The notes: generated by a model not told the origin, from the sequence alone. 64,000 bases of DNA from a virus (IMGVR_UViG_3300033463_000076:16113-80112), one strand, 5' to 3'. Numbered from the stretch's first letter, positions 15,704 to 63,634 are shown. Numbers and translations: made by a program.

Positions 15704-16012
15704 TTAACACTTTGTTACTGAACCTGAAACGATGTACGTCTTAACAGCGAACTTGGCTGCTATCTCATAGGGGACACGCTCACAGTGATGGTCCATTTCC
15801 CACTTCTGACAGAACTGCTCACCCTCCTGGGATATGCAGAGGACTATCTTGCCCTCAGCTGAGCGGTTGACCATTTCCTGCAAGGCGTTGATGCAATCGA
15901 GGCAGAGATAAGCACTGCTGCGCCTCATTGACTTCGGATCAAACGAATAGACGTTGAACTTTCCGTCTGTCTGCTTGTAGTATTCTACTACTTTCTTCTG
16001 TGTTACTTTCAT
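15704..16012 (-). CDS. Hypothetical early protein (TAAGAGCAATG-tagged)
   Basis: 102 aa, first gene after repeated promoter block 1. Confidence 0.7.
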   Translation of the reverse strand: MKVTQKKVVEYYKQTDGKFNVYSFDPKSMRRSSAYLCLDCINALQEMVNRSAEGKIVLCISQEGEQFCQKWEMDHHCERVPYEIAAKFAVKTYIVSGSVTKC

Positions 16013-16160
16013 TGCTCTTACTTGTTTAAAACGATGTTTCTTAATGTTCCTTTATTATGGTGTAAAGGTAGTGATTTTTTTCCAATTATGCAAGCAAAAC
16101 ACCCATTATTTTGTTAACCAGACTTAACCAGCGGAAAGTTTAACTTTACCTAACTTTTGC
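16010..16160 (-). repeat. Repeated early promoter/leader block, copy 1
   Basis: TTGC...ACTACCTTTACA promoter (16071-16080), CATTAAGAAAC box (16036-16046), TAAGAGCAATG start, upstream TTAAC/CAAAAGTTAGG motifs. Confidence 0.8.
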
Positions 16161-16164
16161 AACG

Positions 16165-16259
16165 AAAAACGCGCCCTAACCTCACGGTCCGGACGCGCAA
16201 GAGAGCTTGGTCAGTCGCTAAGAGCAATCCAAACGACTGCCTTCTCTCATTAAGAAACG
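16165..16259 (-). ncRNA. Candidate antisense small RNA complementary to both leader boxes of the early genes
   Basis: Consensus promoter TTTG(16291-94)-N20-TATCTTTG(16263-70); GTTTCTTAATG at the 5' end; ATTGCTCTTA in the loop of a CAGTCG/CGACTG hairpin; terminator CGCGTCC/GGGCGCG with GTGA tetraloop plus T5. Confidence 0.7.
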
Positions 16260-16308
16260 CTGCAAAGATAGAACATTTTTTCTGTCCTACCAAATTTTCT
16301 ACGATATT

Positions 16309-17880
16309 TCATCTTCTCGGCCTAATCTTTCTCATAATCTCGGCGTCTGACATCGTATCGATCTTCGGATAGAACGTGTTGGCCAGTGCATCCATCCAGT
16401 CGGGCGACCGTCCGAGGCGTTCCTTGATATCGTCCTTCGGCTCTATGATGATACGGCCGTCGCTCTGGAACTTCCAGTGCGTATTGATAGCCTCCTCCAT
16501 CAGTTGCTCACACGGCGGCAGTGCTGGGTAGTAGCCGTTCTTCGGGTCGAGCCATTCCCTGACCTTCCAATACAGGTACGCCCTCATGTTGGCGAACTCT
16601 ATCTGCCCAGTGCTGTCCTTGAACCCCTTGACACCCTCCGAGAACTTGCAGGAATAGACGTTCATCTTATACGTAGCCCTCGACTGCTCGTTCAGCTCCT
16701 TCAGCCTCGAGTAGACACCGGCACCCTCACCGATGGTATCGATGAAGGCCTTGTCACGCTTCCTGTCCGTCAGGGCATTGACAACCATGCCGACAACGTG
16801 CATATGGTCGGCCTGACCTGCCGACTGGTGGGCAATGAACTGCGGCACGTAGTTGCCGTATCGGGGACACAGGATAGAAGCGTCTCGACCCATACCGGCC
16901 ACGTCGACACCCAGCAGGCATGACTTCTTGGGCTTGAACTTCTCTTCCTGCAGCTCCTTCCACCTGTTGACGGCCAGCTCGATCCACTCGTACGGTATGA
17001 GGGTATCGGTAGACACCTTCGGGAACAGACCCAGCACCTTGACACGGAACAGGTCGTTAGGACGGTAGTAGTTACCCTCCCACTCGAAATCGCCGTCGCC
17101 TACGATGAAGTCGTCCTTACTGATCTTCGTGCACCACGTCTTGACCTTCTCGGCCACCCACCTATAGTCCACCTGACCAGGAATCAGGTTCTGCTTCGTC
17201 ACGACATTCTCAGCATTGAGCGAGTTCAGACGGAACTTCTGAAAGCGGTCCTGAGTCATCGCCTTGGCGGCATAGCCCGTAGGGATGTTAGGGTTGAACA
17301 CCAGCAGCAGACGAGAGTTACCTTGCAGGTTACCCTCGATGGCGTTGAAAATCGTCTCTGAGATACCAGTGGCCTCGGTCACGACGAACATCACGTTAGC
17401 GGCATGGAATCCTGACCACGCCTCCGTAGCGTTGTTGTCGGCCTTGAATCCCGTCAAGAACCACTCGGCATAGTCCGTACGGATATCGTTCGCCACCAGT
17501 CTGCCAGGACAGGCAAACGGGAACTTGGCCCTTGCGGCCTTAACAAGTCTGTGGATTTCAGGCTTCATGATGTTCTCCACCTGACGGCCTGTAGGTGCGG
17601 TCATGGCGACCTTCGTGTTTTCCGACAGTATCTTTCCCGTAGGGTCGAACCTCGGCGTGAGATACATGAAGCATAATGAAGCGCAAGCGGCCACGAAGTC
17701 CTTACCTCGCGCTGTGCCGCTTGCTACTGCGGTCAGTGGATTGACCTGCACGGACTCAATGATAGCCTGCTGCTCTCTGTCAAGCCTTGCGCCCAACACG
17801 TCGCGTACAAACCTGTTCCAATCCTCTGCCCAATACTTAATCGCTTCATTTATCAGCCTCTGTCTCTCGGTGAGATTCAT
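16309..17880 (-). CDS. terL: Terminase large subunit
   Basis: Walker A-like VASGTARGKD, Walker B-like VVTEATG, nuclease GVDVAGMGRD and C-terminal GRSPDWMDAL. Confidence 0.92.
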   Translation of the reverse strand: MNLTERQRLINEAIKYWAEDWNRFVRDVLGARLDREQQAIIESVQVNPLTAVASGTARGKDFVAACASLCFMYLTPRFDPTGKILSENTKVAMTAPTGRQVENIMKPEIHRLVKAARAKFPFACPGRLVANDIRTDYAEWFLTGFKADNNATEAWSGFHAANVMFVVTEATGISETIFNAIEGNLQGNSRLLLVFNPNIPTGYAAKAMTQDRFQKFRLNSLNAENVVTKQNLIPGQVDYRWVAEKVKTWCTKISKDDFIVGDGDFEWEGNYYRPNDLFRVKVLGLFPKVSTDTLIPYEWIELAVNRWKELQEEKFKPKKSCLLGVDVAGMGRDASILCPRYGNYVPQFIAHQSAGQADHMHVVGMVVNALTDRKRDKAFIDTIGEGAGVYSRLKELNEQSRATYKMNVYSCKFSEGVKGFKDSTGQIEFANMRAYLYWKVREWLDPKNGYYPALPPCEQLMEEAINTHWKFQSDGRIIIEPKDDIKERLGRSPDWMDALANTFYPKIDTMSDAEIMRKIRPRR

Positions 17881-18353: not shown

Positions 18354-19051
18354 TCTTCAACTTCCTTTAGTGCCAGCTCCGTGAGGAACTGAATCGTCGC
18401 ACCGATTGACTTGATGTTCTTCGTCTTTCCGAACTGGACCATCGCCTTGCTAAAGTCGTCGAAGAGGGCGAGGGGTGCGACCCCAACCATTTCCGCCTTG
18501 CTGTCGATGGCCTTGACGAGAGTCTGGAAGTCCTTCAGCTGCTCCGGCAGGAACGTAAGCTGAATCGTCCTCCAGTCGAAGTCCAGCTGCGGCAAGTCCA
18601 TGACGGGGCTTGCGGCCTCTATGGAGTTCAGGTACTTCTCGGGCAGACCCGACGCGATGATATCGTCGATCTCCTTCATCTGCTTGACCAACTGGCCAAG
18701 GATTTCAGAGTCGGCAGTACCGACGAGCTCGTTGTGGGCAATCTGCTTTGACACTACCTGGGACTTCGTGAGTTCAGTAGTCTCTACAAGGGCGTAGATA
18801 TACTTCAGTCCTGCTGCGTTGGCTGCTCTTACCCTGTGGTGGCCACTGATAATCGTGAACGTGTCGCCTTGCTTCAGGACGTAGGGCAGTGACTCCAGCG
18901 CTCCACGGTTCTTGATGTTTGCCGTCAGTATCTTCATACGGCGGTCATCCATCACCTGGGCGTTGATGTCCTGCTCCTTCAAATTACTGATGACGAGCTT
19001 CCATATCTCAAGCCCGCCATCCAGTTCCGCAATCTTAATGTTTTTTTCCAT
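18305..19051 (-). CDS. ParB/Srx-like domain protein
   Basis: NAQVMD...IISGHHRVRAA...QIAHNELVG matches the ParB-N fold. Confidence 0.8.
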   Translation of the reverse strand: MEKNIKIAELDGGLEIWKLVISNLKEQDINAQVMDDRRMKILTANIKNRGALESLPYVLKQGDTFTIISGHHRVRAANAAGLKYIYALVETTELTKSQVVSKQIAHNELVGTADSEILGQLVKQMKEIDDIIASGLPEKYLNSIEAASPVMDLPQLDFDWRTIQLTFLPEQLKDFQTLVKAIDSKAEMVGVAPLALFDDFSKAMVQFGKTKNIKSIGATIQFLTELALKEVEEWQDRQSTTQSTTTRG

Positions 19052-20489: not shown

Positions 20490-20505
20490 AACTCGGGATT
20501 TTAAG

Positions 20506-20577: not shown

Positions 20578-20612
20578 AAATTAAACTACAGCATTTCTTC
20601 TTAAAAGCGATG

Positions 20613-20644
20613 CAAATATACAAACATTATTTGAAAAACAAATA
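20613..20644 (-). promoter_or_regulatory. Promoter (-7 TATATTTG) with TATTTG-N5-CAAATA operator
   Basis: -7 box 20613-20620, operator 20628-20644; drives the tRNA-MTase-ParB-terS-terL unit. Confidence 0.65.
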
Positions 20645-20688
20645 GAATTAACTAAAACTTTAACGAATTTTAGCGACTGAGAGCATTT

Positions 20689-27939: not shown

Positions 27940-28575
27940 TTACTCCTCCTCTTCTATTGGTTCATTATCAGTGTCATTGTCATCATCGTTCAGCTCCATA
28001 GCATCCTGAAACGCTGCTGCAGTAGCATCGTCTTCAGACGTCTTTACATCCTTGCCGTCAGACTTATCCTCCTCGGCTCCGAACATCAGGCCCTCACCGC
28101 TGACCTGAAGAATCTCCTTCTCTACGGTGGCGATCAGCTTCTTGTCTGCATCGGGTACGGCCTCGGCTTTCTTCAGGATAGCCTTTGCGTCCTTGAACTT
28201 GTGTTCGTCCTTGTTCTTACGGGCGAGGGCAATCAGGTCGTCGAACGTCTTCTTGTTCTTTGCCTTGATGTCCTTCTCTTTCTTCGCCATTTCAGAAGCC
28301 TTACGGGCGGTCTCTACGGACTCCTCGAACTCCTTGATGTTAGTCACGAGGCCCTGAGCCTTTCCGACGGACTGGAGGGCTTTGATGAAGCCTTCCTCGA
28401 ACTCCTCCGGCGTACCGTTGGCCACGATCGGGACGATGTTATCAACTGCCTTGTCTTTCACTCCTTTCGTGTCAGACAAGAGACTCATGGCGAGGTTCTC
28501 GCCGTTCTTGCGGATTGTCAACGTTATCTGCTGACCATCCTGCAGCACTGCTGCAATTTCCTTGAAAAATTCCAT
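27940..28575 (-). CDS. PRTRC system protein E
   Basis: Likely start MEFFKEI at 28575; PIVANGTPEEFEEGF motif. Confidence 0.8.
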   Translation of the reverse strand: MEFFKEIAAVLQDGQQITLTIRKNGENLAMSLLSDTKGVKDKAVDNIVPIVANGTPEEFEEGFIKALQSVGKAQGLVTNIKEFEESVETARKASEMAKKEKDIKAKNKKTFDDLIALARKNKDEHKFKDAKAILKKAEAVPDADKKLIATVEKEILQVSGEGLMFGAEEDKSDGKDVKTSEDDATAAAFQDAMELNDDDNDTDNEPIEEEE

Positions 28576-28626
28576 ATCACTTACGTTAAAAACTTGTTTC
28601 TTAATGCTGGCCAACCGGCCGCTCTC

Positions 28627-28783: not shown

Positions 28784-29440
28784 TTACAGGTTGTCTTTGT
28801 AGTCCGAAACATTCTCCGCGCAGCTGATCTGAGTGGCACCGCGACGGTTAACGAAATACTTCTCCAGCGTTCTCTTGATGCGGATGACCTGAATCTGGCA
28901 GTATTCCATGCCGACAGGGAAACCATCTTCCGAGTTGTCGAAGTAACCGAGGGTACGGAACGACTTCAGGCCTACAGACTTGGCAGCTGCGCTTCCTTCG
29001 TCGTACTTGTCAAAGCCAGTACCGTCAGACTTGACGAACATTCGAGTGAAGCGGACGGTATCGGTGTCGCTTGACTGCTTGAAGTACTCCTGAACGATAC
29101 AGAACTGGTTCAGCAGTGGGTCGTTACTGCGAAGAAGCTCGTCGATCCAGTAAGGCGAGAACGTTCCAGTGGTAGCCACGTCGAACTTGTAAGGCTCCTG
29201 TTTCTCCTCCTTAGCCTCTGCCGGCTGCTCGGGCTCTACAGGCTCCAGGTCTTCCTCTTTCTCCACTCGGACATTACCCTGATACTGCTTCTTCAGGGAA
29301 GCCTTCAATGCTGATACACTGCGCTTACCTTTCAACTCCTCCAGCTGCTTGAAAAGCTCCTCGGACTTGATGGTTGCTGACTCGAAGTTCTCACTCTCGA
29401 AAATGCTCTTAATCTGAGCCTTAATCTCTTTTTCTTTCAT
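28784..29440 (-). CDS. Hypothetical early protein (TAAGAGCAATG-tagged)
   Basis: 218 aa, first gene after promoter block 2. Confidence 0.7.
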   Translation of the reverse strand: MKEKEIKAQIKSIFESENFESATIKSEELFKQLEELKGKRSVSALKASLKKQYQGNVRVEKEEDLEPVEPEQPAEAKEEKQEPYKFDVATTGTFSPYWIDELLRSNDPLLNQFCIVQEYFKQSSDTDTVRFTRMFVKSDGTGFDKYDEGSAAAKSVGLKSFRTLGYFDNSEDGFPVGMEYCQIQVIRIKRTLEKYFVNRRGATQISCAENVSDYKDNL

Positions 29441-29590
29441 TGCTCTTAATTTTTTAAAAACGTTTCTTAATATGTTTATTGTTTACACTTGTAAAGGTAG
29501 TGAATTTTCTCGAATTGTGCAAGGGTTACGCTCTTTATTTTGTTAACCGGACTTAACTGGCGAAGAGTTTAACCTTTCCTAACTTTTGAC
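29438..29590 (-). repeat. Repeated early promoter/leader block, copy 2
   Basis: TACCTTTACA 29490-29499, ATTAAGAAAC 29462-29471, TAAGAGCAATG start. Confidence 0.8.
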
Positions 29591-29781: not shown

Positions 29782-29973
29782 TTAATACATTTTCTGGACG
29801 AACAGCTTTGTATTCCAGTCATTGACATACGTGAAATACTTCTCACGGGGCTCACAGACCAGGTTGACTTTCTTCTTCTTGTCCTCAAACCACTGATCTG
29901 CTTCTTCCTGAGTCTTGAACCTCTTGGTCTCTCTCCTCAGTGACTTCTCGTTTAAAATGATGATTCTGACCAT
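29782..29973 (-). CDS. Small hypothetical early protein (TAAGAGCAATG-tagged)
   Basis: 63 aa after promoter block 3. Confidence 0.65.
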   Translation of the reverse strand: MVRIIILNEKSLRRETKRFKTQEEADQWFEDKKKKVNLVCEPREKYFTYVNDWNTKLFVQKMY

Positions 29974-30120
29974 TGCTCTTACTTCTTTTAGTTGTTTCTT
30001 AATGTTTTATTTTTATGATGTAAAGGTAGTGAAAAAGCGCGATATATGCAAGGTTTTCGGCGAAAAAATACTTAAAAAGTGTTCAGCGACCGATTATTTA
30101 ACCTTACCTAACTTTTGCAG
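29971..30120 (-). repeat. Repeated early promoter/leader block, copy 3
   Basis: TACCTTTACA 30019-30028, CATTAAGAAAC 29994-30004. Confidence 0.8.
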
Positions 30121-34175: not shown

Positions 34176-34349
34176 GAATTAACATTCTTTGTCAAAATAG
34201 CCTCGGAGTAACATTAAGAAACTTGCTCGTAAAAAAGCAATGAAACGCCTCACGGCGGTATTTCCTAAACTAACTATTATTCCACCTAACTCGCATAGCG
34301 GCGACTGGCGTGTAGTGGGGTAGGATTCATTAGCTACACGCCAACTACG

Positions 34350-36433: not shown

Positions 36434-36868
36434 CTACACGGCCGGCAGGAAACCGCGTCCCTGCCGAGTCGTATCTGTCGTACGTCCTAAATACTTCTTG
36501 ACCTCCCAAATGACGTCGCTGACGGTCTGGAAGTACACCTCAGAGCGTTCAATCTTAATACCGACGCTTTCGATCAACTTCTGCTGTGTCTTGTTGAAGA
36601 AATCAGCAGCCAGCTTACAGCTCTCCGTGTAGTTCATGCCACCGAAGCGGTAAACGATCTCCCAGAGCTTATCACGAACTTTCAGGTCTGCCTCAACCGC
36701 CTTGGCTATCTCCCTGGCTTTGTTGACACGGGCCTGATTCATCTTAACCCACAACTTACAGAACTCGTCTTTGTCGAGGTCTGACTGGTTGTAAACTTCG
36801 TTGATGTGCCAGTACTCGGCTTCTGAAACCTTCATCTGGACTCTTGCTTCAAATTCTGACTGTAACAT
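36434..36868 (-). CDS. Hypothetical early protein (TAAGAGCAATG-tagged)
   Basis: 144 aa after promoter block 4. Confidence 0.7.
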   Translation of the reverse strand: MLQSEFEARVQMKVSEAEYWHINEVYNQSDLDKDEFCKLWVKMNQARVNKAREIAKAVEADLKVRDKLWEIVYRFGGMNYTESCKLAADFFNKTQQKLIESVGIKIERSEVYFQTVSDVIWEVKKYLGRTTDTTRQGRGFLPAV

Positions 36869-36990
36869 TGCTCTTAATTCTTTAAAAAACCGTTTCTTAA
36901 TGTTTTATTTTGATAGTGTAAAGGTAGTGAAAAACGGCGATATACGCAAGTATTTCAGTCTTTATTTTCTTAAAAAGTGTTCAACCAAAA
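36866..36990 (-). repeat. Repeated early promoter/leader block, copy 4
   Basis: TACCTTTACA 36917-36926, CATTAAGAAAC 36892-36902. Confidence 0.8.
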
Positions 36991-38494: not shown

Positions 38495-38671
38495 CTACAA
38501 TCTACCGAAGTGGGCATCTGCTCCACGCTTCGCTGATAAACAACTCGGATAGCCAGTAGCGTGCGTTACCATACTTCCATCATCCTGCACGGTTCCAACG
38601 TGCCAGTCCGGACGTGCAAACCTCTTTCCTGCGTTTGCGTTCCAAATCGAATAACCTTTGTACTTAATCAT
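38495..38671 (-). CDS. Small hypothetical protein (TAAGAGCAATG-tagged), missing from the ORF track
   Basis: 58 aa MIKYKGYSIWNANAGKRFARPDWHVG... starting at the conserved tag. Confidence 0.6.
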   Translation of the reverse strand: MIKYKGYSIWNANAGKRFARPDWHVGTVQDDGSMVTHATGYPSCLSAKRGADAHFGRL

Positions 38672-38676
38672 TGCTC

Positions 38677-39141
38677 TTATTTCTTTAGCGTTTCCAAAAT
38701 AACCATATTCTCCTTACACTTGCTGACGATGAAGCGATACGACCAACCACCTTCCGAGAACTCCTCACGGAACTTCAGTCCCAGCTCTTTCAGCTTAGAA
38801 CGGACACCCTGCTTCTTCTCGTCCAACTTCCAAAGAGTATCGACACTCACACCAAATGACGTAGCCTGAATGCCAAACAGCGGCTTCAGGTACTGGTAGA
38901 GGTCGATGTACGTATTCTTAACCTCAGCGAACAGGCGCTGTGATATCCACTCCCACGTTACTTCTTTCTCCTTCGGGGTCTTCATCCACTTCGAATAGTA
39001 CTGACCGTCGCCACCCTCGAAGCCTGAAACCAAAATCTTAACGGCTTTCTGCGGTGTCGTCTCGTAGCACAGATCATCCACGAAGTCTATCACGAAACCT
39101 TCTGACTTGACTCTCTCGATTGTCTCTTTGCTGATATTCAT
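38677..39141 (-). CDS. Hypothetical protein
   Basis: 154 aa. Confidence 0.6.
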   Translation of the reverse strand: MNISKETIERVKSEGFVIDFVDDLCYETTPQKAVKILVSGFEGGDGQYYSKWMKTPKEKEVTWEWISQRLFAEVKNTYIDLYQYLKPLFGIQATSFGVSVDTLWKLDEKKQGVRSKLKELGLKFREEFSEGGWSYRFIVSKCKENMVILETLKK

Positions 39142-39145: not shown

Positions 39146-39382
39146 CTAACAGATTTCGAGGTTCTTCATTTCGTTCTCGTCGAAGGTGTAGCCCATCTTA
39201 GCCATTTCCTTCACTGCAGCTTTCTTGGCACCACTGGCTGTACTATAGATGCGACCCTTACCGATAGAAAACCAGTACTCGCCGTCCTGGATAGCAGTCA
39301 CCATTATCTCGTCTTTCTGTCCTCCGTTAAGCGAGAACTTTACCGACTTTCTTTCCGAATTGTTACACTTGATTGTTACCAT
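39146..39382 (-). CDS. Hypothetical early protein (TAAGAGCAATG-tagged)
   Basis: True start likely MVTIKCNN at 39382; the longer track start lies inside the promoter. Confidence 0.65.
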   Translation of the reverse strand: MVTIKCNNSERKSVKFSLNGGQKDEIMVTAIQDGEYWFSIGKGRIYSTASGAKKAAVKEMAKMGYTFDENEMKNLEIC

Positions 39383-39526
39383 TGCTCTTACTTCTTTTTG
39401 ATGTTTCTTAATGTTTTTATTTATGGTGTAAAGGTAGTAAAAAAACACGATATTTGCAATAGATACACTCTTTATTTTGTTAACGAAACTTTAGCAGCGG
39501 AAAGATTAACCTTTCATAACTTTAGC
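39380..39526 (-). repeat. Repeated early promoter/leader block, copy 5
   Basis: TACCTTTACA 39427-39436, CATTAAGAAAC 39403-39413. Confidence 0.8.
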
Positions 39527-41240: not shown

Positions 41241-42437
41241 TCAGAACTTTCTCGTTTCCTTTGCCTTGAAATTGTACACTGGCTTGATAACCTCAAGCAC
41301 CTCCACCGTAGGCTCTATGCAGTCGATAATCTCCTGCATCGGCTTATAGACCATAGGACTCTCGTCGAGGGTTTCAGGACAGACGGACGTAGAATACACA
41401 TCCTTCATTTCTGACTTGAACTGCTCTACATCGAGCGTCTGGAAGGCTTTCTTTCGGCTCATTAAGCGTCCAGCTCCGTGCGGTGCAGAATACAGCCAAT
41501 CAGGATTGCCCTTACCGACACAAATCAGCGAACCGTCGCGCATATTCATCGGGATAATCAGACGCTCACCTCTCATAGCCCTCACGGCACCCTTACGGAC
41601 TGTCAGGCGGTTCATGCTGTTGTCGATGTAGTTATGCACCGTCTGGAACATATCGTATGCGTGGAGTTCCATCTTCTTACAGATCGTTCTCATTATCACA
41701 TGACGATTCAGCTCTGCATACTTCTGAGCAATCATCATATCATTGATATAGTCGGCAATCCACTCAGGACCGATGCCGGCCAAATCACCATCGACTGACG
41801 GAATTTTCAACTTCTGCAGCTCGCTCTGGATATCCTTCTGACGTCCTTCCTTCTTCAGTCTGTCAATCAATTCCTGCCTCTGCTTTTCATCGATCTTCTT
41901 CGCTATGCCACAAGCAGCCTCAATTCCTTTCTGCTGATAATACTCACAGATACGGACACCGAGGTTACGGCTTCCTGAATGGATGACGATATAGAAACGG
42001 CCGTCCTTATCCACGTTCGCCTCGATGAAGTGGTTACCACCACCCAGCGTACCGAGCGAACGATAATCGTTATCGATATTGATAATCGACTTCGCTTTCA
42101 GGAACAGCAGTTCCGGCATCTGCTCTATGGCCTCCTTATGGATATTGAACCCAGACGGAACGAACTCGTTAATCACTTCGTCGAGCTTCTTCAGATCGAC
42201 CTCAGCGTGCTCGAAGTTGGCTACGAGCATACCACATCCGATATCCACTCCTACGGTGTTCGGCACTACCTGGTCTTTCAGTTCGATGACCGTCCCGATA
42301 GTACAGCCTTTCCCCGCATGGCAGTCAGGCATAACTCTAATCTTGCAATCCTTATAGGCATCGCACTCACTCATTTTCTCAATCTGCCAAGTGGCTTCAT
42401 CTTCCACCGTCTTAGCGAAAATCTTAACTCTTTCCAT
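41241..42437 (-). CDS. rtcB: RtcB family RNA ligase
   Basis: MPDCHAGKG, GVDIGCG, GTLGGGNHF, HSGSR, HNY and HGAGR motifs all present. Confidence 0.95.
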   Translation of the reverse strand: MERVKIFAKTVEDEATWQIEKMSECDAYKDCKIRVMPDCHAGKGCTIGTVIELKDQVVPNTVGVDIGCGMLVANFEHAEVDLKKLDEVINEFVPSGFNIHKEAIEQMPELLFLKAKSIINIDNDYRSLGTLGGGNHFIEANVDKDGRFYIVIHSGSRNLGVRICEYYQQKGIEAACGIAKKIDEKQRQELIDRLKKEGRQKDIQSELQKLKIPSVDGDLAGIGPEWIADYINDMMIAQKYAELNRHVIMRTICKKMELHAYDMFQTVHNYIDNSMNRLTVRKGAVRAMRGERLIIPMNMRDGSLICVGKGNPDWLYSAPHGAGRLMSRKKAFQTLDVEQFKSEMKDVYSTSVCPETLDESPMVYKPMQEIIDCIEPTVEVLEVIKPVYNFKAKETRKF

Positions 42438-47714: not shown

Positions 47715-49262
47715 CTAACCGAATAACGTCGTTTGAACTGTCTCTGCCTTAGCTGCTGGCTTGCGCTTCTTCTCGGTCTTCTTGGGAAGGTTCCAGCCCT
47801 TACCCTTACTGGCCTCCACGTTGAACTTGTACCAGACATCTTCATCCAGGAACTCGAAGTGCATCGTACCCTTCTTGTAGCCGATACACTTGAAGAAACC
47901 CCACTCGAACCACTTACCCCAATCGGGCTTCAGACGGTTGACTGCATCGTTCAGTGTCTCGGTCTCGTCGAAGTTCGTACCGGTCAGGTAACACAGGGCC
48001 TTATGAACATCCTCGATGATATCCACGTTACCGCTTCCCCTGTATCTGATACTCAGCTTCTCCTTCTCCCACGAATAGTCGTTGCGTGTCATCCAGTCCA
48101 CTATGAACCGCTTGTTGACCATATAGTTCGCATTGGTCTTCCACGTCTCTCCAGCGGTGCTGTTCTCTGCAGACAGCGAACAAATCTTATCGAAGGCCTC
48201 GATGATAGCCCTCTGCATCCGCTGGCCGTTCGTCTGTACGACCATGTCGATCACCTTGTATATGTTACCCATCGTGAACGGCACCTGGCTCTGCTGCTCA
48301 ACGAACTTGTTTATCTGCTCCCTGAGCTGCTTGGTAGCATACTTCTCCATATTCATCTTGCGGAATATGATATGCCAGTAGTACTTCTGCAACACCTTCT
48401 TATACTCTTGGTGGGTAATGGTAGTGCCACTGCTGCTACTCTCGTCCCTGCTGACGATGGCGCCGAACGTGACAGGCAGATATCCGTAGGTCTGCTTGAC
48501 CTGCTTCACCTCTCCAGTCTTCTCGTCCCTCTCCGGACGGTAGTCGTAGAAATCAGCCATTTCGTTAATCTCCTTCGAGGCCTTCATGACGTTATCGAAC
48601 AACTTGACCGCCGAGACGTATCGGTTGACGATATCCCTTACGAAGTTGTACTGCATCAAGCCTTCGGTACTTCCTCCGGCGATATCCGTATCATACTGGT
48701 CGAAGAAATAGCCAGCGAACTCGTCTTCTCCCTGACCTTCCTTGTACAGCTTTACGAGCGAGACGTATACATTGGTACGTCTCTCAGCCTTCTTGAACAC
48801 GTCACCCAGGAACTCAGACCTACCATACAGCTTCACCGTCTCTAACAGCTTGGCATTCGTCTTATTCCACGAACTCTTCTCGAGGTTGCTGTCATTGCAG
48901 ATGGCAATCACCGTACAGCCTGGAGGCGCTATCTCGAAAGCGTGCAGTATGTGTTCTGCTCCTCGGCTAAACGGCGGGTTCATCACGATCATGTCGATGT
49001 GGCTGACCATTTCCGACGTGACCGTCAGGAAATCGTTCGCTATTATCTGACACTTACCCCTCAACAGCTTCAGGTTGTAGGGGTCGTTCTCACAGGCAAT
49101 CACCTCACGGGCTCCGTTTCTCTTGAGCCAGTCTACGATATTGCCCTTGCCGGCAGACGGTTCGAGAATCGTCTTGCCGACAAAATCATCACCCATCATC
49201 ATCTTTGCGATGACTTCATCGGGCGTGGGATAGAAATCAGGGTTTTCCGAAAAAATACTCAT
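47715..49262 (-). CDS. N6-adenine methyltransferase fused to a DUF4942-like domain (TAAGAGCAATG-tagged)
   Basis: DFYPTP, LEPSAGKG and MNPPF motifs; C-terminal FFKCIGYKKGTMHFEF. Confidence 0.85.
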   Translation of the reverse strand: MSIFSENPDFYPTPDEVIAKMMMGDDFVGKTILEPSAGKGNIVDWLKRNGAREVIACENDPYNLKLLRGKCQIIANDFLTVTSEMVSHIDMIVMNPPFSRGAEHILHAFEIAPPGCTVIAICNDSNLEKSSWNKTNAKLLETVKLYGRSEFLGDVFKKAERRTNVYVSLVKLYKEGQGEDEFAGYFFDQYDTDIAGGSTEGLMQYNFVRDIVNRYVSAVKLFDNVMKASKEINEMADFYDYRPERDEKTGEVKQVKQTYGYLPVTFGAIVSRDESSSSGTTITHQEYKKVLQKYYWHIIFRKMNMEKYATKQLREQINKFVEQQSQVPFTMGNIYKVIDMVVQTNGQRMQRAIIEAFDKICSLSAENSTAGETWKTNANYMVNKRFIVDWMTRNDYSWEKEKLSIRYRGSGNVDIIEDVHKALCYLTGTNFDETETLNDAVNRLKPDWGKWFEWGFFKCIGYKKGTMHFEFLDEDVWYKFNVEASKGKGWNLPKKTEKKRKPAAKAETVQTTLFG

Positions 49263-49287
49263 TGCTCTTAGTTCTTTATTGCGTTTC

Positions 49288-49584
49288 TTAATCTAAACTC
49301 AGCTCCTTATAGTTGAAGCACGGCCACTGGCTGATATCAACGAAATCGAAACATCCGTACTCGACCATTACGATCTCCTCGTCCTTAATCTCGTACAGGT
49401 GTCCGCTCCATGACTGCATTTCCTCCGGACCGTCGAGGAACATGACGGCCACCTGGCCAGCTTCCTCGTCTGTGAATACTCTGAAATCCTTGCGGGTCTG
49501 CTCGATACCTGTCAGCTTGAGACCGTCGGCTATCAGGTTGTCGACTTCCTTCAAGATGCTGCTCTTTGTCTTTTCCGTAATCAT
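49288..49584 (-). CDS. Hypothetical early protein (TAAGAGCAATG-tagged)
   Basis: 98 aa after promoter block 6. Confidence 0.65.
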   Translation of the reverse strand: MITEKTKSSILKEVDNLIADGLKLTGIEQTRKDFRVFTDEEAGQVAVMFLDGPEEMQSWSGHLYEIKDEEIVMVEYGCFDFVDISQWPCFNYKELSLD

Positions 49585-49730
49585 TGCTCTTACTTCTTTA
49601 AGTGTTTCTTAATGTTCCTTTTGATGTTGTAAAGGTAGTGAAAAAACACGATATTTGCAAGGTTTTCGCTCTTTATAAACTTAAAAAGTGTTCAACAGAC
49701 TCTTATTTAACCTTACCTAACTTTTGCATC
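49582..49730 (-). repeat. Repeated early promoter/leader block, copy 6
   Basis: TACCTTTACA 49628-49637, CATTAAGAAAC 49604-49614; very similar to copy 3. Confidence 0.8.
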
Positions 49731-53915: not shown

Positions 53916-54031
53916 AAGGAGCGGCAGGATTCGAACCTGCGCTTACAGAAACGAGCTGTCTTGTCTTACGCTGCCACTCAAGGGCTCGCCGCTTTGCTCT
54001 CTGCCGTTCTAACCTCTTTAACTACACTCCT
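53916..54031 (-). tRNA. tRNA-like gene with a 43-nt insertion in the anticodon arm (possible intron; spliced anticodon GCA, Cys)
   Basis: Acceptor AGGAGTG/CGCTCCT, U73, D-arm GTT..GG..AAC, T-arm GCAGG-TTCGAAT-CCTGC; the anticodon stem GCAGA/TCTGT encloses the insert. Confidence 0.6.
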
Positions 54032-56783: not shown

Positions 56784-57616
56784 CTTAGTCCAAATATTTT
56801 CTCATTCTTGATTAAACTCCTATTCTCATTCAGGAACTTTATCAGCTCCTCGCAATGCTCCGTGAGATACGGCACGTCCCTCTCCGGACGGAACAGGTAG
56901 CTCTCCGTATAGGTCTCGTAGTAGGTCTTGCCCATTTCCACGATGTTATACTCGAACTCCCTGACATCGCAGCCGTTCTGAATCAGAGCGTAGGGATAGA
57001 CGAGGTGCTGGAAGTGTGACTGGAACGAGCCCACTCCCATGTACCTGCCTGTGGTCTTCAGATCGTGGGTCTTGAACGGCATCAGATAGTCGATGTAGCC
57101 GTACAGCATGACCTCGCCGAACGTCGTCGGTAGCATGGCCTGTACGTACTGCTGGCAGAGGGCACCCTTGTAGTAGTCGGCGACCTCACGTACCATCCTG
57201 AGCGGAAAGTAGAACTCCCTGCCGTTGTACCTGGCCCTGACTCCAGTGACCTGACGATACTCGTCACGCACCTTCGTTATCAGCATCTTCGTGCTGTTCT
57301 GGCCGAGTACGATGCAGTCGATGACCTCATTGAAAGCCGTTCCCTTGTCTGCTGCCTCACTATCGAACGGCACCCTGTTGATGCTGTCGATCAGCGACTT
57401 GAACTTCTCTTCGTGGAACTCCTCGGGGGAGTACTTGGGATTCTCGGAGAAACCCCAGTACTGCTCCCAAATGGAATCGCTGTTCTCGTACTCGAAGAAC
57501 TTGTCGAGAAGTGAGGCGTAGAACTTGAACTTAGGCTTGTGCTGCATCCTCGTACTGCTTAGACTCCTTGTTATAGACCAGACCGAGCGCCTTGACCTTC
57601 TTGCCGAACAGGTCAC
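56780..57616 (-). CDS. PD-(D/E)XK-type exonuclease (true start probably near 57546)
   Basis: AADKGTAFNE...LYGYIDYL...HDLKTT...QHLVYPY. Confidence 0.7.
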   Translation of the reverse strand: MTCSARRSRRSVWSITRSLSSTRMQHKPKFKFYASLLDKFFEYENSDSIWEQYWGFSENPKYSPEEFHEEKFKSLIDSINRVPFDSEAADKGTAFNEVIDCIVLGQNSTKMLITKVRDEYRQVTGVRARYNGREFYFPLRMVREVADYYKGALCQQYVQAMLPTTFGEVMLYGYIDYLMPFKTHDLKTTGRYMGVGSFQSHFQHLVYPYALIQNGCDVREFEYNIVEMGKTYYETYTESYLFRPERDVPYLTEHCEELIKFLNENRSLIKNEKIFGLR

Positions 57617-58478
57617 GTGCCTTCATAATCAGCGAGTTTCCGAATCCCGAGTACTCACCGATATGCTGCAGGAAATGGTTGGCACCTCCCGCATCGGTTA
57701 TCGTACTGATGGACTCCTCGATCTCGGCGAGTGCCTTGTTGTACTCGTCGACCTTAGCCTGCTTGTTGCCAATCATCTGCTGATACTTGGCGATAATCTG
57801 CTTCTCGATGAAGTCGTTTGCGCCAGTAGGCTTGCCGTTCTTATCGAGAATCGTCTGCAGGAACATCACGCCTGGCAGCATACAGGTGTTCTTGCCGTCG
57901 TTGACATCCGTCGGGTCGAACGTGATGGAGCGCTTCACATATCCCTGCTCGTTCTTCATTTCGAGATATCCCAACAGGTCGAGCTCAGTCACGATGCTGT
58001 TGTAGTTCTTCTCTCGGAGGGCTGGGATGTAGACCGTATCGTCCTTGGCTCCCTTACGGGTGTCACGGTGGGCGACGAAGATGATGTGCTTGCCGAGTCC
58101 CGACAGTCTGTCTACGAAGTTCTTGAACTCCGTGTTGATGGCCGTCCAGTCCTGAACCTTCGGCTGTTTCTGTCCGCACTTGAAAGCGATGATGAAGTCC
58201 ATCATCTTTCCGACGGTATCGACCACGATCGTCTGATAGTCCGACAGGTCCTCGTTCAGCACGTTCAGGACATCCTGCCAGCAGGTTACCTGTACGATAC
58301 CGACGGAGTCATTCAGGTGGTTCTCATTGACACGCTTGACACCGTTGTCGAAGTCAAGCAACAGCGGCTTCGGAGCCGACAGTGCGAGGGTTGTCTTACC
58401 CATACCAGCCTGACCGTAAATCATCATCTTGACGGTCGTCTGGATTTGAAGTTCATTACTCTTACGAATTAAACTCAT
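57531..58478 (-). CDS. AAA_24 / Sak4-like ATPase annealing protein (TAAGAGCAATG-tagged)
   Basis: IYGQAGMGKTT, LDFDNG, VVDT and FVAH motifs. Confidence 0.88.
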   Translation of the reverse strand: MSLIRKSNELQIQTTVKMMIYGQAGMGKTTLALSAPKPLLLDFDNGVKRVNENHLNDSVGIVQVTCWQDVLNVLNEDLSDYQTIVVDTVGKMMDFIIAFKCGQKQPKVQDWTAINTEFKNFVDRLSGLGKHIIFVAHRDTRKGAKDDTVYIPALREKNYNSIVTELDLLGYLEMKNEQGYVKRSITFDPTDVNDGKNTCMLPGVMFLQTILDKNGKPTGANDFIEKQIIAKYQQMIGNKQAKVDEYNKALAEIEESISTITDAGGANHFLQHIGEYSGFGNSLIMKARDLFGKKVKALGLVYNKESKQYEDAAQA

Positions 58479-58512
58479 TGCTCTTAATTTTTTAAAATGT
58501 TAAACACTAAAA

Positions 58513-59070
58513 CTACTTATCTCTAAAAATGTTATTATTGTCAGCATATTTCACAAACTCGGCCTTCTCGTGGATTCCGAGCTTCAGATAGACGTTCTTC
58601 CTGTGAGTCTTAATCGTCTCGGGCGACTTGAAAAGACGCTCTGCGATCTCGTCGACCTCCAGGCCGTCGTAGTACATCTTCATCACCTCCAGTTCCGTCT
58701 TCGACAGCTTGGAGTTGAAGCGTGGCATACATACTCTGTCCTGCATGAAGCACTCACCCCTCAGCGGACACTCCACCTTCTCGAAGTGGAAACGTCCCGA
58801 ACGGTCAATGTCCGTCTTTGTCGTGTCGAGCTTTCCGAAGTTGCACTTGCAGAACCTCCGGACGATCAGGAACAGGTAGTACGTGACGTTGGCCGAACTC
58901 TTCTCGTAGTGCTTTGACAGCAGCTTGTAGGCCTCGGGATAGAACTCACGTATCATGTCAATCATTTTCTGAATGACATCGGTCATCCCCTCCTCCAGCT
59001 TGGCAGTCCGTCCGTCATCGGTGTGGAACCACAGCTCGTCGTTGATTGTGTAGAACTCTAATCCTTCCAT
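58513..59070 (-). CDS. LuxR-type HTH regulator
   Basis: C-terminal LSKTELEVM...IAERLFKSPETIKTHRKNVYLKLG; N-terminal CxCxxG...CPxRGEC motif. Confidence 0.88.
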   Translation of the reverse strand: MEGLEFYTINDELWFHTDDGRTAKLEEGMTDVIQKMIDMIREFYPEAYKLLSKHYEKSSANVTYYLFLIVRRFCKCNFGKLDTTKTDIDRSGRFHFEKVECPLRGECFMQDRVCMPRFNSKLSKTELEVMKMYYDGLEVDEIAERLFKSPETIKTHRKNVYLKLGIHEKAEFVKYADNNNIFRDK

Positions 59071-59312
59071 ATCTCTTCCACTGGAATACCTGTCTTCTTC
59101 GATAGATACTGGCGGTGCTCCTCCTTTTCAGGCTTGGTCTTGCCGTGCATCCAGTTATGCACCGTGGCCACTGACACACCGCAATCCTGAGCGGTCTCAT
59201 TCACGAAGCTCGTCTTTGGAAACGTCGCTTCCGGCAGACTGTCGTAATACCCCTCGAGGGGGAATTTTTGAACTTTTTCTGCTTTTTTGTTTGTACTTTC
59301 ATTCATTTTCAT
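59058..59312 (-). CDS. Cro-like HTH protein
   Basis: AQDCGVSVATVHNWMHGKTKP; divergent from cI. Confidence 0.75.
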   Translation of the reverse strand: MKMNESTNKKAEKVQKFPLEGYYDSLPEATFPKTSFVNETAQDCGVSVATVHNWMHGKTKPEKEEHRQYLSKKTGIPVEEIWKD

Positions 59313-59400
59313 TACCTTTGTATCGTTTTAATTAGAATTACAGTGTAAAGGTAGTAATATTTTTCGAGAATTACGTAATATTACACGGAAATATTACCTA
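59313..59400. promoter_or_regulatory. Lysis-lysogeny switch: overlapping divergent promoters and GTAATATTAC operators
   Basis: Rightward TACCTTTG 59313-59320, leftward TACCTTTACA 59344-59353, palindrome 59375-59384 plus half-sites. Confidence 0.7.
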
Positions 59401-59429
59401 TCTTAGATATTTTTAACTTGGCTAAAGGT

Positions 59430-59816: not shown

Positions 59817-59817
59817 C

Positions 59818-60234
59818 ATGGCACTACTCAAACCCGAAGAGGCCCACCGCCTCGCAGCATATCTCCCAGAGGACTACGCCTTCGTTGCGTGGGACACCGA
59901 GACATCTATAGCGGTTCCTGACCCCGTCGTTAACGAGGCAATGAATAAATATATTACTTATAAGGTGAAACTTCCCAAGGCCTCCGAGACGAACAACCTG
60001 GGCATTTCCCTCGAGAAAGAGGGTAGGGTACGGGAGGCCATCGAGGCATACGAGCGCAACATCACGGAGGATGCCTACCTCACACGGCACCCATACGACC
60101 GCCTTGCCGTCCTGTATCGGAGGGCAAAGGACTACGACAACGAGATACGAGTACTAACCCTTGCCTTCGAGCGGACCGGCGACGACAAATACGCCGAGCG
60201 TCTGCACAAGGCAGAAGAACTGAGAATCAGATGA
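59818..60234 (+). CDS. TPR-like protein (lysogeny-side accessory gene)
   Basis: NNLGISLEKEGRVREAIEAYE...PYDRLAVLYRRAKDYDNEIRVL. Confidence 0.7.
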   Translation: MALLKPEEAHRLAAYLPEDYAFVAWDTETSIAVPDPVVNEAMNKYITYKVKLPKASETNNLGISLEKEGRVREAIEAYERNITEDAYLTRHPYDRLAVLYRRAKDYDNEIRVLTLAFERTGDDKYAERLHKAEELRIR

Positions 60235-60826: not shown

Positions 60827-60895
60827 CGGATGACGGCCACCACCCTCACGGGCAGCAGCCGCCGAAACTCAACTCATATATGAAGTTAACGTACC

Positions 60896-61099: not shown

Positions 61100-61349
61100 T
61101 CTCCTTCAGTTTACGCTCCACCCTTGCGGCATAGCCTGCGGAGGCCTGCCATGCACGGAAATACTTCTCGTACAGGTGCTTGTACTTCTCTACCTCGAGG
61201 CGGAGCAGCTTGTTCTCCTTCAGAATCCTGTCCGCATACGCCCTTTCCTGGGTTGCGAAACGACCTCGGTTGTCCCTCGGCTTCTGGCTCTTATCGTCAG
61301 CAAACAGATCCTTTTCCATTCTCTGTACTACTCTTAGCTGGTTTCTCAC
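61080..61349 (-). CDS. Hypothetical protein
   Basis: RDNRGRFAT motif, coiled coil. Confidence 0.55.
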   Translation of the reverse strand: MRNQLRVVQRMEKDLFADDKSQKPRDNRGRFATQERAYADRILKENKLLRLEVEKYKHLYEKYFRAWQASAGYAARVERKLKEIADGCC

Positions 61350-61449
61350 TCCACGCTACCAGTGCGCACACTACGAAGAACAGGCACATCCAGTCAGGGA
61401 ACGTCAGTGCCGCCAGTGTCACAGACACGATAATGTTTACTTGTCTCAT
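61297..61449 (-). CDS. Small membrane peptide (TAAGAGCAATG-tagged)
   Basis: Likely start MRQVNIIVSV at 61449; two hydrophobic stretches. Confidence 0.5.
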   Translation of the reverse strand: MRQVNIIVSVTLAALTFPDWMCLFFVVCALVAWSEKPAKSSTENGKGSVC

Positions 61450-61469
61450 TGCTCTTACTTTTTTGTTTC

Positions 61470-61817: not shown

Positions 61818-61858
61818 AAATAACCTTAAAAAATTAGCGCACTTCCAGCATTTTTTAC

Positions 61859-61951
61859 TACCTTTGTGCCGTTTTAATTAGAATTATAGTGTAAAGGTAG
61901 TGAATTTTGGCGATATTACCTAATATTACGTAATAATTTATGTAATATTAC
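61859..61951. promoter_or_regulatory. Second copy of the switch-type divergent promoter with GTAATATTAC operators
   Basis: Rightward TACCTTTG 61859-61866, leftward TACCTTTACA 61890-61899, palindrome 61942-61951. Confidence 0.7.
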
Positions 61952-62054
61952 AGGTTCTTAACAAAACGTAACACCTGCGCACTGATTGTTTAACGCATAT
62001 AATATATAAGGTATGACAGGATGTTTCTCTATGGTGTTCAACGGCTTGGCAGGG

Positions 62055-62340
62055 CAAAAAACCTGCAAATAGCCTGCAAGTATCAAAGCGAGTTTTTCGC
62101 AGTCCGTTTAAATAAAGGGGGTTCAGGGCTTTTGCGGCACGTCTGGAAAGCGTGTAAACGACAAAATCGTTTCGCAGGTTCGAATCCTGTTCTCTCCGCA
62201 GCGAAACCCCGATAAACAGAGGGCTTGCGACATCATTAAGAAACAACAAAAGGCTGTCAGAAACTTGCAAAAAACGTCAGGTTTGCGCAAAAACACCTGC
62301 AAATAACCTGCAAAACCTGCAAATAACCTGCAAGCCTGAA
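62055..62340. mobile_element. attP region with ACCTGCAA arm-type repeats
   Basis: CCTGCAA repeats on both sides of the tRNA-Ser fragment (about 62061-62080 and 62297-62333), directly upstream of the integrase. Confidence 0.75.
62133..62198 (+). pseudogene. 3' two-thirds of tRNA-Ser(GGA): att core
   Basis: CACGT-CTGGAAA-GCGTG anticodon arm, long variable arm, T-arm and 3' acceptor strand TCTCTCC-G; the matching 5' acceptor and D-arm are absent. Confidence 0.85.
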
Positions 62341-62353
62341 ACATTTAAGAGCA

Positions 62354-63634
62354 ATGGCTACGACGAAATTCTATCTCGACACCCGTGCCGTGTCCGCTGG
62401 CGAACCGGCACCCCTCAAGATTGCTGTCACCAAGCACGGCAAGACAGCGCTGTACTCCCTCGACGTGAAGCTGCAGCCCTCCCAATGGGACAATCACAGG
62501 CAGGTCATCCTCAACCACCCCAACAAGCTACGCCTGAACAACTTCATCATGAACCGCAAGACGGTTTTCGACAACTACCTCATGGAACTGACCAATGCCG
62601 GCGAGCTGGCACTGATGTCAGCGACTCAGATCAAGAACAGGATAGCAGGGCTTATCAATCCCGACTATGCTCCTGAGCGTGCCGACCTGTTCATACCGAG
62701 GTACCTTGCATTCGCCGAAACGCGCAACGCCGAGCGTACCCGTGAAATCTATCTCGAGACCCACAAGAAGATACTGCGCTTCGACTCCAAGGCCAAGCGG
62801 CTGTCCTTCGAGGACATCACCAAGTCATGGCTCGACCGCTTCGAGCACTACCTTTCGAGTGAGGAACACCTCGCACCGAACACCATAGCCATCCACCTGC
62901 GCAACATCCGCGCCGTAGTGAACGAGGCCATCGATGACGAGGTGACGGGCACCTACGCCTTCCGCAAGAAGAAAATCAAGTACCAGGCAACACCCAAGCG
63001 CTCCTTCACCCTCGAGCGGCTGCAGGAACTCTGGAACTATCCGTGCGAGCCTTTCCAGCAGAAATACATCGACGCCTTCAAGCTGTCCTTCCTGCTCATA
63101 GGAATCAACGTCGTGGATATCTGCAAGCTGACCTCCCAGAACATCGTCGACGGACGGCTGGAGTACATACGCTCCAAGACCGGACGCTTCTACAGCATCA
63201 AACTCGAGCCCGAGGCCATCGAGATACTGGAGAGGTACAAGGGCAAGGAACTGCTCTTCGGCCCTGCCGAGGGCTTCAAGAAGTACAAGACGTTCTCCAA
63301 CTCCCTCGACCGAGGGCTGAAGAACATCGGGCCTGTCATCCAAGTCCCTAACCCTGACTGGAAGCGGGGATGCAAGAAACACAGATACCACATCGAGCGC
63401 ACTTCCGCTTTCCCTGGCATATCGATCTACTGGGCTCGTCACTCATGGGCGACCATTGCCGCCGAGATAGACGTGCCTGACGCTACGATATCGGCAGGAC
63501 TGGGGCACGGCCACGGCGATAAGACGACGGCCATCTATGTAAACTTCAGGCAGAGGAAAGTCGATGAAGCGAACAGGGATATCATCGACTACGTCTTGGG
63601 TGTTGTTAGGCAATGTAAAGGTAGTAATTTTTAG
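62354..63634 (+). CDS. int: Tyrosine integrase (TAAGAGCAATG-tagged)
   Basis: Arm-binding N-terminus, SAM-like domain, YWARHSWAT and LGH...TAIY catalytic boxes. Confidence 0.95.
   Translation: MATTKFYLDTRAVSAGEPAPLKIAVTKHGKTALYSLDVKLQPSQWDNHRQVILNHPNKLRLNNFIMNRKTVFDNYLMELTNAGELALMSATQIKNRIAGLINPDYAPERADLFIPRYLAFAETRNAERTREIYLETHKKILRFDSKAKRLSFEDITKSWLDRFEHYLSSEEHLAPNTIAIHLRNIRAVVNEAIDDEVTGTYAFRKKKIKYQATPKRSFTLERLQELWNYPCEPFQQKYIDAFKLSFLLIGINVVDICKLTSQNIVDGRLEYIRSKTGRFYSIKLEPEAIEILERYKGKELLFGPAEGFKKYKTFSNSLDRGLKNIGPVIQVPNPDWKRGCKKHRYHIERTSAFPGISIYWARHSWATIAAEIDVPDATISAGLGHGHGDKTTAIYVNFRQRKVDEANRDIIDYVLGVVRQCKGSNF

Follow-up and report, generated by a model that had tools for sequence, protein, structure and literature searches.

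How a phage might switch a set of dispersed, unrelated genes together is the question raised by a 64 kb stretch of viral DNA (IMGVR_UViG_3300033463_000076:16113-80112, hereafter the window), in which an identical 11-nt sequence, TAAGAGCAATG (the tag), ends in the start codon of eleven genes. A second sequence, ATTAAGAAAC (the box), is found upstream of most tagged starts, and the genes proposed to be co-regulated are referred to as the AAGAGCAATG regulon. The analysis described here suggests, as a fairly probable answer based on sequence comparisons, that trans-acting antisense RNAs of the phage mask the tagged start codons, the tag being the common target site of an antisense regulon. The window is part of an 80,112-bp viral contig, both ends of which share about 9 bases, and nearly all of its genes lie on the minus strand, taken below as the coding strand. 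The source is an uncultured rumen phage of Prevotella-like bacteria; public runs holding this DNA are cattle, sheep and other gut metagenomes. Cultured relatives were not recovered, as none of 50,697 GenBank phage records gave a nucleotide match, and the top TerL match showed 30% identity.

Twelve exact copies of the tag are present in the window, compared to 0.01 expected (shuffled sequences gave a mean of 0.01 and a maximum of 1), and the remaining 16 kb of the contig has none. Eleven end in an ATG that opens an open reading frame (ORF) of 50–515 aa, ten on the minus strand and one, the integrase gene, on the plus strand, so that every tagged gene has an ATG start (Table 1). The twelfth copy (nt 13670–13680, plus strand) opens just 22 codons and is not a gene start; it is antisense to a small minus-strand unit described below. 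Besides the 12 exact copies there are four with one mismatch and 16 with two, where 17 are expected by chance at up to two mismatches. This bimodal, all-or-none distribution indicates that the tag is a discrete word and not the peak of a fuzzy consensus. Its flanks are free to vary except for an A-rich stretch at -14 to -10.

The box occurs 11 times in exact form (0.11 expected). Seven copies sit 12–15 nt upstream of a tag, two are solitary (28596 and 62235), and two, at 16249 and 34213 on the plus strand, are antisense relative to the coding strand; at 61465 just the 9-nt core remains. Six tagged genes, those with a -7 box in Table 1, are preceded by a repeated promoter-leader module of ~95 nt. 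An alignment of the six shows four invariant blocks (TTGC, the -7 box ACTACCTTTACA, ATTAAGAAAC and TAAGAGCAATG), separated by variable spacers, which argues for constrained elements rather than recent duplications. The other five tagged genes have only the tag in common, two of them also carrying the box or its core. An earlier sequence-only reading of the window had placed the tag on eleven gene starts and the box upstream of them, and had named a Sak4-like recombinase, a methyltransferase, the integrase and the first genes of early operons among the targets. All positions it gave for tags proved correct, each ATG opening an ORF, although the twelfth copy had been missed; its boxes were recovered as described, and family searches agree on the recombinase (phrog_124), the methyltransferase (with DUF4942) and the tyrosine integrase. 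The first genes of these presumed early operons would be the six behind the promoter module, which the other five lack.

What links the tag to a possible partner is that antisense copies lie within two short non-coding units, here termed small RNA (sRNA)-A and sRNA-B. The promoters of this phage are of the Bacteroidota type, TTTG / TAnnTTTG (consensus summarised in PMC7366714), and those of sRNA-A and sRNA-B are two of the four full-consensus promoters on the coding strand (six matches in the window relative to 0.56 expected). In sRNA-A, a promoter with the full consensus TTTG-N-TATTTTTG (nt 13734–13764) is followed by a 5' hairpin (GCGUAugaagcugUACGC), the anti-tag CAUUGCUCUUA (nt 13680–13670) and a strong intrinsic terminator (T-run at 13627–13622); directly downstream are a head gene (nt 13590–12787, phrog_5824) and then the major capsid and tape measure protein genes. 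The sRNA-B unit also starts from a full-consensus promoter (nt 16263–16294). Its first bases form a single-stranded anti-box, GUUUCUUAAU (nt 16258–16249), exactly complementary to the box; the loop of a hairpin, GAUUGCUCUUA (nt 16229–16219), is antisense to the tag at 10 of 11 positions, and the terminator has a GTGA loop and a T-run at 16169–16165. There are thus two separate seeds in sRNA-B, GUUUCUUAAU complementary to the box and AUUGCUCUUA complementary to the tag. A promoter and intrinsic terminator of its own around a short non-coding unit, together with a conserved, accessible seed complementary to several mRNA starts, are among the features by which a trans-encoded base-pairing sRNA is recognised, and both were found. 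An Rfam cmscan of the whole window at gathering thresholds returned only tRNA matches, neither sRNA unit falling in any family.

A possible third element (nt 34205–34262) consists of a hairpin (CCGCCgtgaGGCG), CAUUGCUUUUU, a small hairpin and GUUUCUUAAUG, with nine nucleotides between CAUUGCUUUUU and GUUUCUUAAUG, and is a collinear antisense of the whole box-plus-tag leader. The opposite strand has no ORF at this point, and the element is kept in two related phages (G001 and G002), the copies of which have in addition an upstream box-like arm able to pair with the anti-box. It could serve as a third regulator or else as a sponge.

These observations extend well beyond the window. The window phage (G000) was compared with five related IMG/VR records fetched whole (G001–G005), and with further loci. 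At least 12 IMG/VR contigs, with 20 stretches between them, match the box-plus-tag pattern; their coding DNA either shows only 65–82% identity to the window or does not align with it. More than 100 related viral contigs retain the same tag. Each of G001–G005 has 9–12 tags on the main strand and one or two reverse copies; across the six phages the register of the tag to the ATG is fixed at ~60 sites, and all antisense copies, except the integrase's own tag, sit between a TAnnTTTG promoter and an intrinsic terminator and fall into the two unit families sRNA-A and sRNA-B. Synteny is also conserved (terL, sRNA-B, a tagged promoter module, ~2 kb, sRNA-A, head genes). Tags are confined to the region upstream of sRNA-A in all six genomes, leaving the structural module of 9–32 kb without any. 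The 84 tagged ORFs of eight phages represent 46 protein families, only about four of which are common to different lineages, and the promoter-leader modules differ from genome to genome while the tag is universal. The Sak4-like recombinase is tagged in G001 and G003 too, and the G001 integrase retains the tag core GAGCAATG.

The RNA units are similarly preserved. A short form of sRNA-B (G003–G006 and G008) has a 5' hairpin, a single-stranded seed with an unpaired probability of 0.65–0.94, and a terminator. An alignment of six such sequences shows the 14-mer TTTCATTGCTCTTA unchanged and unpaired throughout, with compensatory changes at seven of nine terminator pairs. In a further 69 loci anchored on the sRNA-B terminator the seed is exact in 68, and the loop of the 5' hairpin varies. 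The distant, low-GC phages G006 and G008 still retain the core GAGCAAUG / CAUUGCUC. The anti-tag of sRNA-A is identical in five distinct flanking contexts, and its 5' hairpin is common to more than 110 contigs, with variable sequence downstream. In every phage the seed is the exact complement of 9–12 gene starts. Box and anti-box also match up: G000, G001 and G002 have both the leader box and the anti-box of sRNA-B, and in G003–G005 the promoter-driven leaders lack the box, which remains at one internal gene, and sRNA-B lacks the anti-box.

Sense and antisense copies of the tag core were counted in 110 loci that share the sRNA-A hairpin, grouped by lineage. The G008-like lineage gave 23 sense and 26 antisense copies in 200 kb, the G004-like 40 and 26 in 113 kb, and the G006-like 3 and 8 in 52 kb. 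Neither sense nor antisense copies occur in the G009-like lineage (222 kb) or in one further lineage (66 kb), and the G010-like lineage has no sense and one antisense copy (107 kb). All tagged lineages have at least one antisense RNA unit, and tag and anti-tag co-occur with a Fisher odds ratio of 12 (p = 4e-8, without phylogeny correction). Like the complementarity, the anatomy of the units and their conservation, this co-occurrence is a direct observation. A shared trans-acting translational regulator, which the sequence-only reading had proposed from a fixed tag on A-rich leaders without Shine-Dalgarno pairing, is thereby supported at the sequence level. The co-variation of tag and sRNA loops in related phages, by which it proposed to check this, is not seen in this clade, the seed being invariant.

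If the antisense RNAs act as suggested, eleven non-structural mRNAs would present UAAGAGCAAUG at -8 to +3 as the pairing target; they include those of the six first genes behind the promoter-leader module and those encoding the Sak4-like recombinase, the methyltransferase, the integrase and a small membrane peptide. From its plain consensus promoter sRNA-B would pair with the tag and also with the box near the mRNA 5' end; sRNA-A, a terminated leader of the head operon, would pair with the tag at -8 to +3, and the element at ~34.2 kb may act likewise. Pairing over the start codon of an unstructured leader devoid of a Shine-Dalgarno (SD) sequence would block binding of the 30S subunit. The tagged leaders are nearly unstructured (minimum free energies of -1.9 to -5.6 kcal/mol), and since there is no inhibitory structure, repression is the simplest effect of pairing. 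The whole set would be turned down jointly, by sRNA-B in the lysogen, by sRNA-A upon firing of the late promoter, or at both stages. The genes for recombination and modification, the accessory genes and the integrase gene would in this way gain a second layer of silencing. We infer from the observations above that the small RNAs are expressed and pair in vivo, as well as the repressive direction and the timing. Energies of whole-sRNA duplexes (RNAduplex) with every start region did not separate tagged from untagged genes, spurious duplexes arising from GC-rich stems, and this metric was dropped.

Metatranscriptome contigs give a weak hint of transcription. Contigs of two studies cover the sRNA-A leader (13501–13717 and 13501–13713) and run on into the head gene, and contig coverage of 15413–16043 takes in the tagged gene starting at 16012 together with its leader; three studies in all supplied these contigs. 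They end 10–15 nt short of the predicted transcription starts, and transcript ends and levels cannot be read from them.

Several observations weigh against antisense control. The sRNA-A terminator is read through in the RNA contigs, and this RNA may therefore be mostly an mRNA leader, and sRNA-B is covered by no RNA contig in four metatranscriptome runs, libraries from which short RNAs are usually lost. CATTG has been lost from sRNA-A of G003, and in some homologues the anti-tag is partly paired, with an unpaired probability of 0.37 in sRNA-A of G001 and 0.55 in sRNA-B of the window. Compensatory change between tag and anti-tag is absent, the seed being invariant: a search for variant seeds, anchored on the sRNA-A hairpin and the sRNA-B terminator, yielded only flank changes (CATTGCTCTAA, CATTGCTCACT) and two deletions, one in G003 and one of 1 nt at another locus (L242), none accompanied by a matching new tag, and de novo searches of the sister lineages G007, G009 and G010 found no alternative tags. 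Invariance is nevertheless what a seed shared by about ten targets should show, since any change in it would be strongly counter-selected; the word would then be frozen across more than 100 contigs and covariation could not be found. To our knowledge Bacteroidota lack Hfq, and no chaperone was identified in this analysis. Lastly, a second start-associated sequence, the 8-mer GAGTTATG, has 10 copies in the contig (~1.2 expected), nine of them at ORF starts that include late-looking genes, and GAGATATG is found at three further starts, including that of the tape measure protein at 8107. No antisense copy of either was found (for GAGTTATG, on the coding strand), and with GAGTTATG on nine gene starts lacking such a copy, part of what the GAG at -5 to -3 represents may be start context in general.

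The last point leads to an alternative, namely that the tag is mainly a start context preferred by the phage, a Kozak-like enhancer for the ribosome or initiation factors of the host, with antisense copies that are secondary or incidental. This is considered unlikely. The GAG shared with GAGTTATG (nine starts) and GAGATATG (three starts) and the uniform use of ATG would fit such a context, as would the A-rich stretch at -14 to -10 and an A at +4 in the flanks, which are known to favour initiation in Bacteroidota (PMC7366714). The sequence-only reading had itself named an equal frequency of the motif at host gene starts as grounds for refutation, and this is not so: 301 genomes of the likely host family (that of the one Prevotella genome with a match) contain 436 matches, or ~1.45 per genome relative to a random expectation of ~1.4, and the density in the phage is ~300 times higher. 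Structural genes of the phage lack the tag, and all eight positions upstream of the ATG are invariant in an all-or-none manner. Complementarity to 16S rRNA does not exceed chance either, the longest complement in two host-family genomes being 6 nt, away from the 3' end and equalled by 92% of shuffled tags. Mirror copies that form unpaired seeds in conserved promoter-terminator units would be left unexplained.

A protein could also recognise the tag as an RNA operator, for example a phage or host factor resembling the RegA repressor or the RegB nuclease of phage T4. RegA, one factor that binds many early start regions, is a precedent, and the fixed register to the AUG, the marking of many unrelated mRNAs and the confinement to non-structural genes would all suit such a protein. 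It is improbable all the same, as no candidate RNA-binding protein was seen among the genes scanned, and an operator predicts neither the antisense copies nor the pairing of anti-box and anti-tag in one small unit.

Action of the tag at the DNA level, either as a repressor site similar to the stoperators of mycobacteriophage L5 or as a micro-homology junction for cassette exchange between co-infecting phages, appears very improbable as a replacement for pairing between RNAs, with which it is compatible. The tag is asymmetric, keeps to a single direction with respect to transcription and is found in non-structural regions; its presence on 46 unrelated gene families with genome-specific promoter-leader modules resembles mosaic boundaries, and the phage encodes a Sak4-like annealing protein. 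A DNA site would not, however, need the strict ATG register seen at ~60 sites, 11 bp is short for recombination, and the reverse copies are unpaired segments of structured small transcription units with covarying stems. That the sRNAs pair with the tags but activate or stabilise the mRNAs, by protecting the 5' region from RNase or recruiting ribosomes, draws on the same pairing evidence and on internal tags of relatives that follow GC hairpins without a U-tract, suggestive of processing or stability signals at junctions, yet it is very unlikely given that pairing spans the AUG itself, that the leaders are already open with no inhibitory structure to relieve, and that known start-codon-spanning Bacteroides sRNAs repress (PMC7366714).

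Masking of tagged start codons by phage RNAs may reach beyond the phage. In a Prevotella metagenome-assembled genome (contig CAMJGE010000009.1; G011:C9:20364-20392, L180 4340-4400), hsdM is preceded by a full phage-type leader, in which a -7 box (TAACTTTGC) is followed by ATTAAGAAAC, 11 nt and TAAGAGCAATG. This is a single case. The gene (581 aa) opens a Type I restriction-modification operon that continues with hsdS and hsdR, and WYL and AAA_15 genes adjoin. Because sRNA-B of the window matches both sites of this leader, it could on complementarity silence this restriction system; another possibility is that a phage cassette was taken up by the defence island in which the operon lies. A search of viral contigs found no gene related to the tagged Prevotella hsdM. 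A second Prevotella match to box plus tag (G322) was rejected, as it merely opens a 14-codon ORF, and of four matches in genome contigs the three outside Bacteroidales look like chance, about four being expected in 596 Gb.

Should the proposed regulon be real, it would mean that temperate phages can switch dispersed, unrelated genes post-transcriptionally through one common start-codon tag. In Bacteroidota, where initiation is not SD-led and Hfq is lacking, it would also be a first clearly defined regulon of phage sRNAs, and an 11-nt tag with its matching RNA would make a compact, portable repression module for the engineering of Bacteroides and Prevotella.

Table 1. Positions of tags, boxes, antisense units and other features in the window.
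Feature	Position (nt)	Strand	Gene	Promoter -7 box	Box	Remarks
Tag	16010..16020	-	15704-16012, 102 aa	16061-16070	16036-16045	Class A promoter
Tag	29438..29448	-	28784-29440, 218 aa	29490-29499	29462-29471	
Tag	29971..29981	-	29782-29973, 63 aa	30019-30028	29994-30003	
Tag	36866..36876	-	36434-36868, 144 aa	36917-36926	36892-36901	phrog_15742
Tag	38669..38679	-	38495-38671, 58 aa			Internal gene; without promoter module or box
Tag	39380..39390	-	39146-39382, 78 aa	39427-39436	39403-39412	
Tag	49260..49270	-	47715-49262, 515 aa		49283-49292	N6-methyltransferase-like domain and DUF4942; without own promoter
Tag	49582..49592	-	49288-49584, 98 aa	49628-49637	49604-49613	
Tag	58476..58486	-	57531-58478, 315 aa			Sak4-like recombinase, phrog_124
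Tag	61447..61457	-	61297-61449, 50 aa		61465-61473 (9-nt core)	Small hydrophobic ORF
Tag	62346..62356	+	62354-63634, 426 aa		62235-62244 (solitary)	Tyrosine integrase
Solitary box ATTAAGAAAC	28596..28605	-	5' of 27940-28614			Without tag
sRNA-A	13622..13741	-				Head-operon leader; predicted promoter-to-terminator unit
sRNA-B	16165..16294	-				Just 3' of terL; predicted promoter-to-terminator unit
Possible third anti-leader element	34205..34262	-				3' untranslated region or intergenic
TTTGTTTTTCAAATA promoters	2724-2754, 13734-13764, 20613-20642; also ~22058, 34140, 52177	-				Before tail, head, tRNA and other blocks
GAGTTATG starts	ATG at 53907, 50322, 41237, 35080, 21381, 20489, others					
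Phage transcription regulators	58513-59312					PHROG family assignment

Other features of the window deserve brief mention. Family searches of its proteins identified tape measure, major head, large terminase, ParB-like, RtcB and Sak4-like recombinase proteins as well as transcription regulators, and the integrase is of the Bacteroidota type, with an Arm-DNA-bind_5 domain. A second class of promoters, to which that of sRNA-A belongs, shares the near-palindromic -33 region TTTGTTTTTCAAATA and probably forms a co-regulated, perhaps late, set. Two minus-strand promoters with a TACCTTTACA -7 box (59300–59360 and 61840–61900) have a distinct leader, in which an inverted repeat of the -7 box (AAAGGTA) stands right before the ATG of small regulator-like genes and could form a hairpin or an operator. 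Upstream of the integrase gene (nt 62150–62340, plus strand), a segment resembling a tRNA 3' end (GGTTCGAATCC) is accompanied by four direct repeats (ACCTGCAA), and this region is probably the phage attachment site (attP) with arm-type integrase sites. Two Rfam tRNA matches (8858–8936 and 53916–54031, minus strand) were not called by ARAGORN, and one, of 116 nt, may contain an intron. The RtcB RNA ligase gene (nt 41241–42437, minus strand) opens with a one-mismatch tag, TAATAGCAATG. In the relatives, internal tags often lie 8–10 nt downstream of a GC-rich hairpin that lacks a U-tract, as at 18991 in G003, 15444 in G004 and 6461 in G005 (oriented coordinates; L055, L062 and L065), and one conserved tag of this kind opens an ORF of three codons only (ATG AAA TGT TAG), which may be a decoy or a leader peptide.

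No report of the tag motif was found in the literature searched, which returned chance matches in unrelated papers only. Parts of the proposed system nevertheless have counterparts in other phages and bacteria. In c4 RNA, two short exposed segments pair with two sites at the ribosome-binding region, silencing lytic-pathway genes, which parallels the two seeds of sRNA-B and their two leader elements. This small antisense RNA is encoded by phages P1 and P7 (immI; PMC8198154), and CI RNA of the satellite P4 is related to it. Unlike the units described here, which are separately transcribed and would address some 11 dispersed mRNAs, c4 has a single operon under its control and arises by processing of the same transcript; the Rfam C4 family gave no match in the whole-window cmscan at gathering thresholds.

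The layout of sRNA-A, in which a promoter, an RNA of ~110 nt and a terminator stand directly upstream of late structural genes, is that of StxS and of the lambda PR'-tR' '6S' RNA, and the same order is kept in the relatives. StxS is a terminated late leader that acts in trans as a base-pairing sRNA, including on phage mRNA (Sy et al. 2020, PMC7547250). It differs in being Hfq-dependent and proteobacterial and in acting on rpoS and stx1, whereas the target set here would be the tagged regulon of the phage itself. In contrast to the lambda late leader, a Q-like antiterminator was not identified in the window, no search aimed at Q homologues having been made. From the same phylum as the host comes GibS of Bacteroides thetaiotaomicron, a single-stranded seed of which pairs across the start codons of SD-less mRNAs and represses them (Ryan et al. 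2020, PMC7366714). Promoter type and the placing of a single-stranded seed across the start codon are shared, but GibS is encoded on the chromosome and pairs imperfectly with a small number of targets, while here the match between seed and target is exact on many genes of one phage.

The closest known case, by analogy of arrangement, is that of the start-associated sequences (SAS, with an extended form, ESAS) of Cluster K mycobacteriophages, described by Pope et al. 2011 (PMC3203893), the function of which was still stated to be unverified in 2025 (PMC12699233). In both, a short asymmetric motif stands right before the ATG of 10–20 genes from unrelated families, is restricted to the half of the genome without structural genes and has one orientation, with a single reverse copy away from gene starts; about half of the sites have a second upstream element that varies by sub-lineage (the ESAS there, the box and leader module here), and the motif is essentially missing from the host genome. 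Of the traits that define the class, the tag thus shows the start-codon repeat on many genes and the one-sided, non-structural distribution with rare reverse copies, and lacks the pairing of an SD core with the 16S 3' end. The SAS sequence (GGGATAGGAGCCC) is unrelated and contains that SD core, whereas the tag takes in the start codon and lacks a match to rRNA. A further difference is that the reverse copies here lie in promoter-terminator RNA units, a kind of partner not described for SAS.

In mycobacteriophage Anaya (JF704106) the only reverse SAS copy is located in a 385-nt gene-free gap after a terminator (L201 29845-29905, record ~59845-59905). It folds into a long hairpin with the anti-SAS CCUCCUAUCC as its 10-nt loop (z = -2.8, and -4.8 for 141 nt), the same design as in the anti-tag units of the rumen phage. 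A comprehensive reading, in which a phage-wide switch that masks start codons exists, sRNA-B silences the host hsdM, and the reverse SAS of Anaya is the same kind of device, is unlikely as a whole, and if true would explain SAS after 15 years. SAS have remained unexplained since 2011, and the same anatomy is seen here in another phylum, with probable partner small RNAs; the tag/anti-tag system therefore suggests a testable hypothesis for the SAS of mycobacteriophages.

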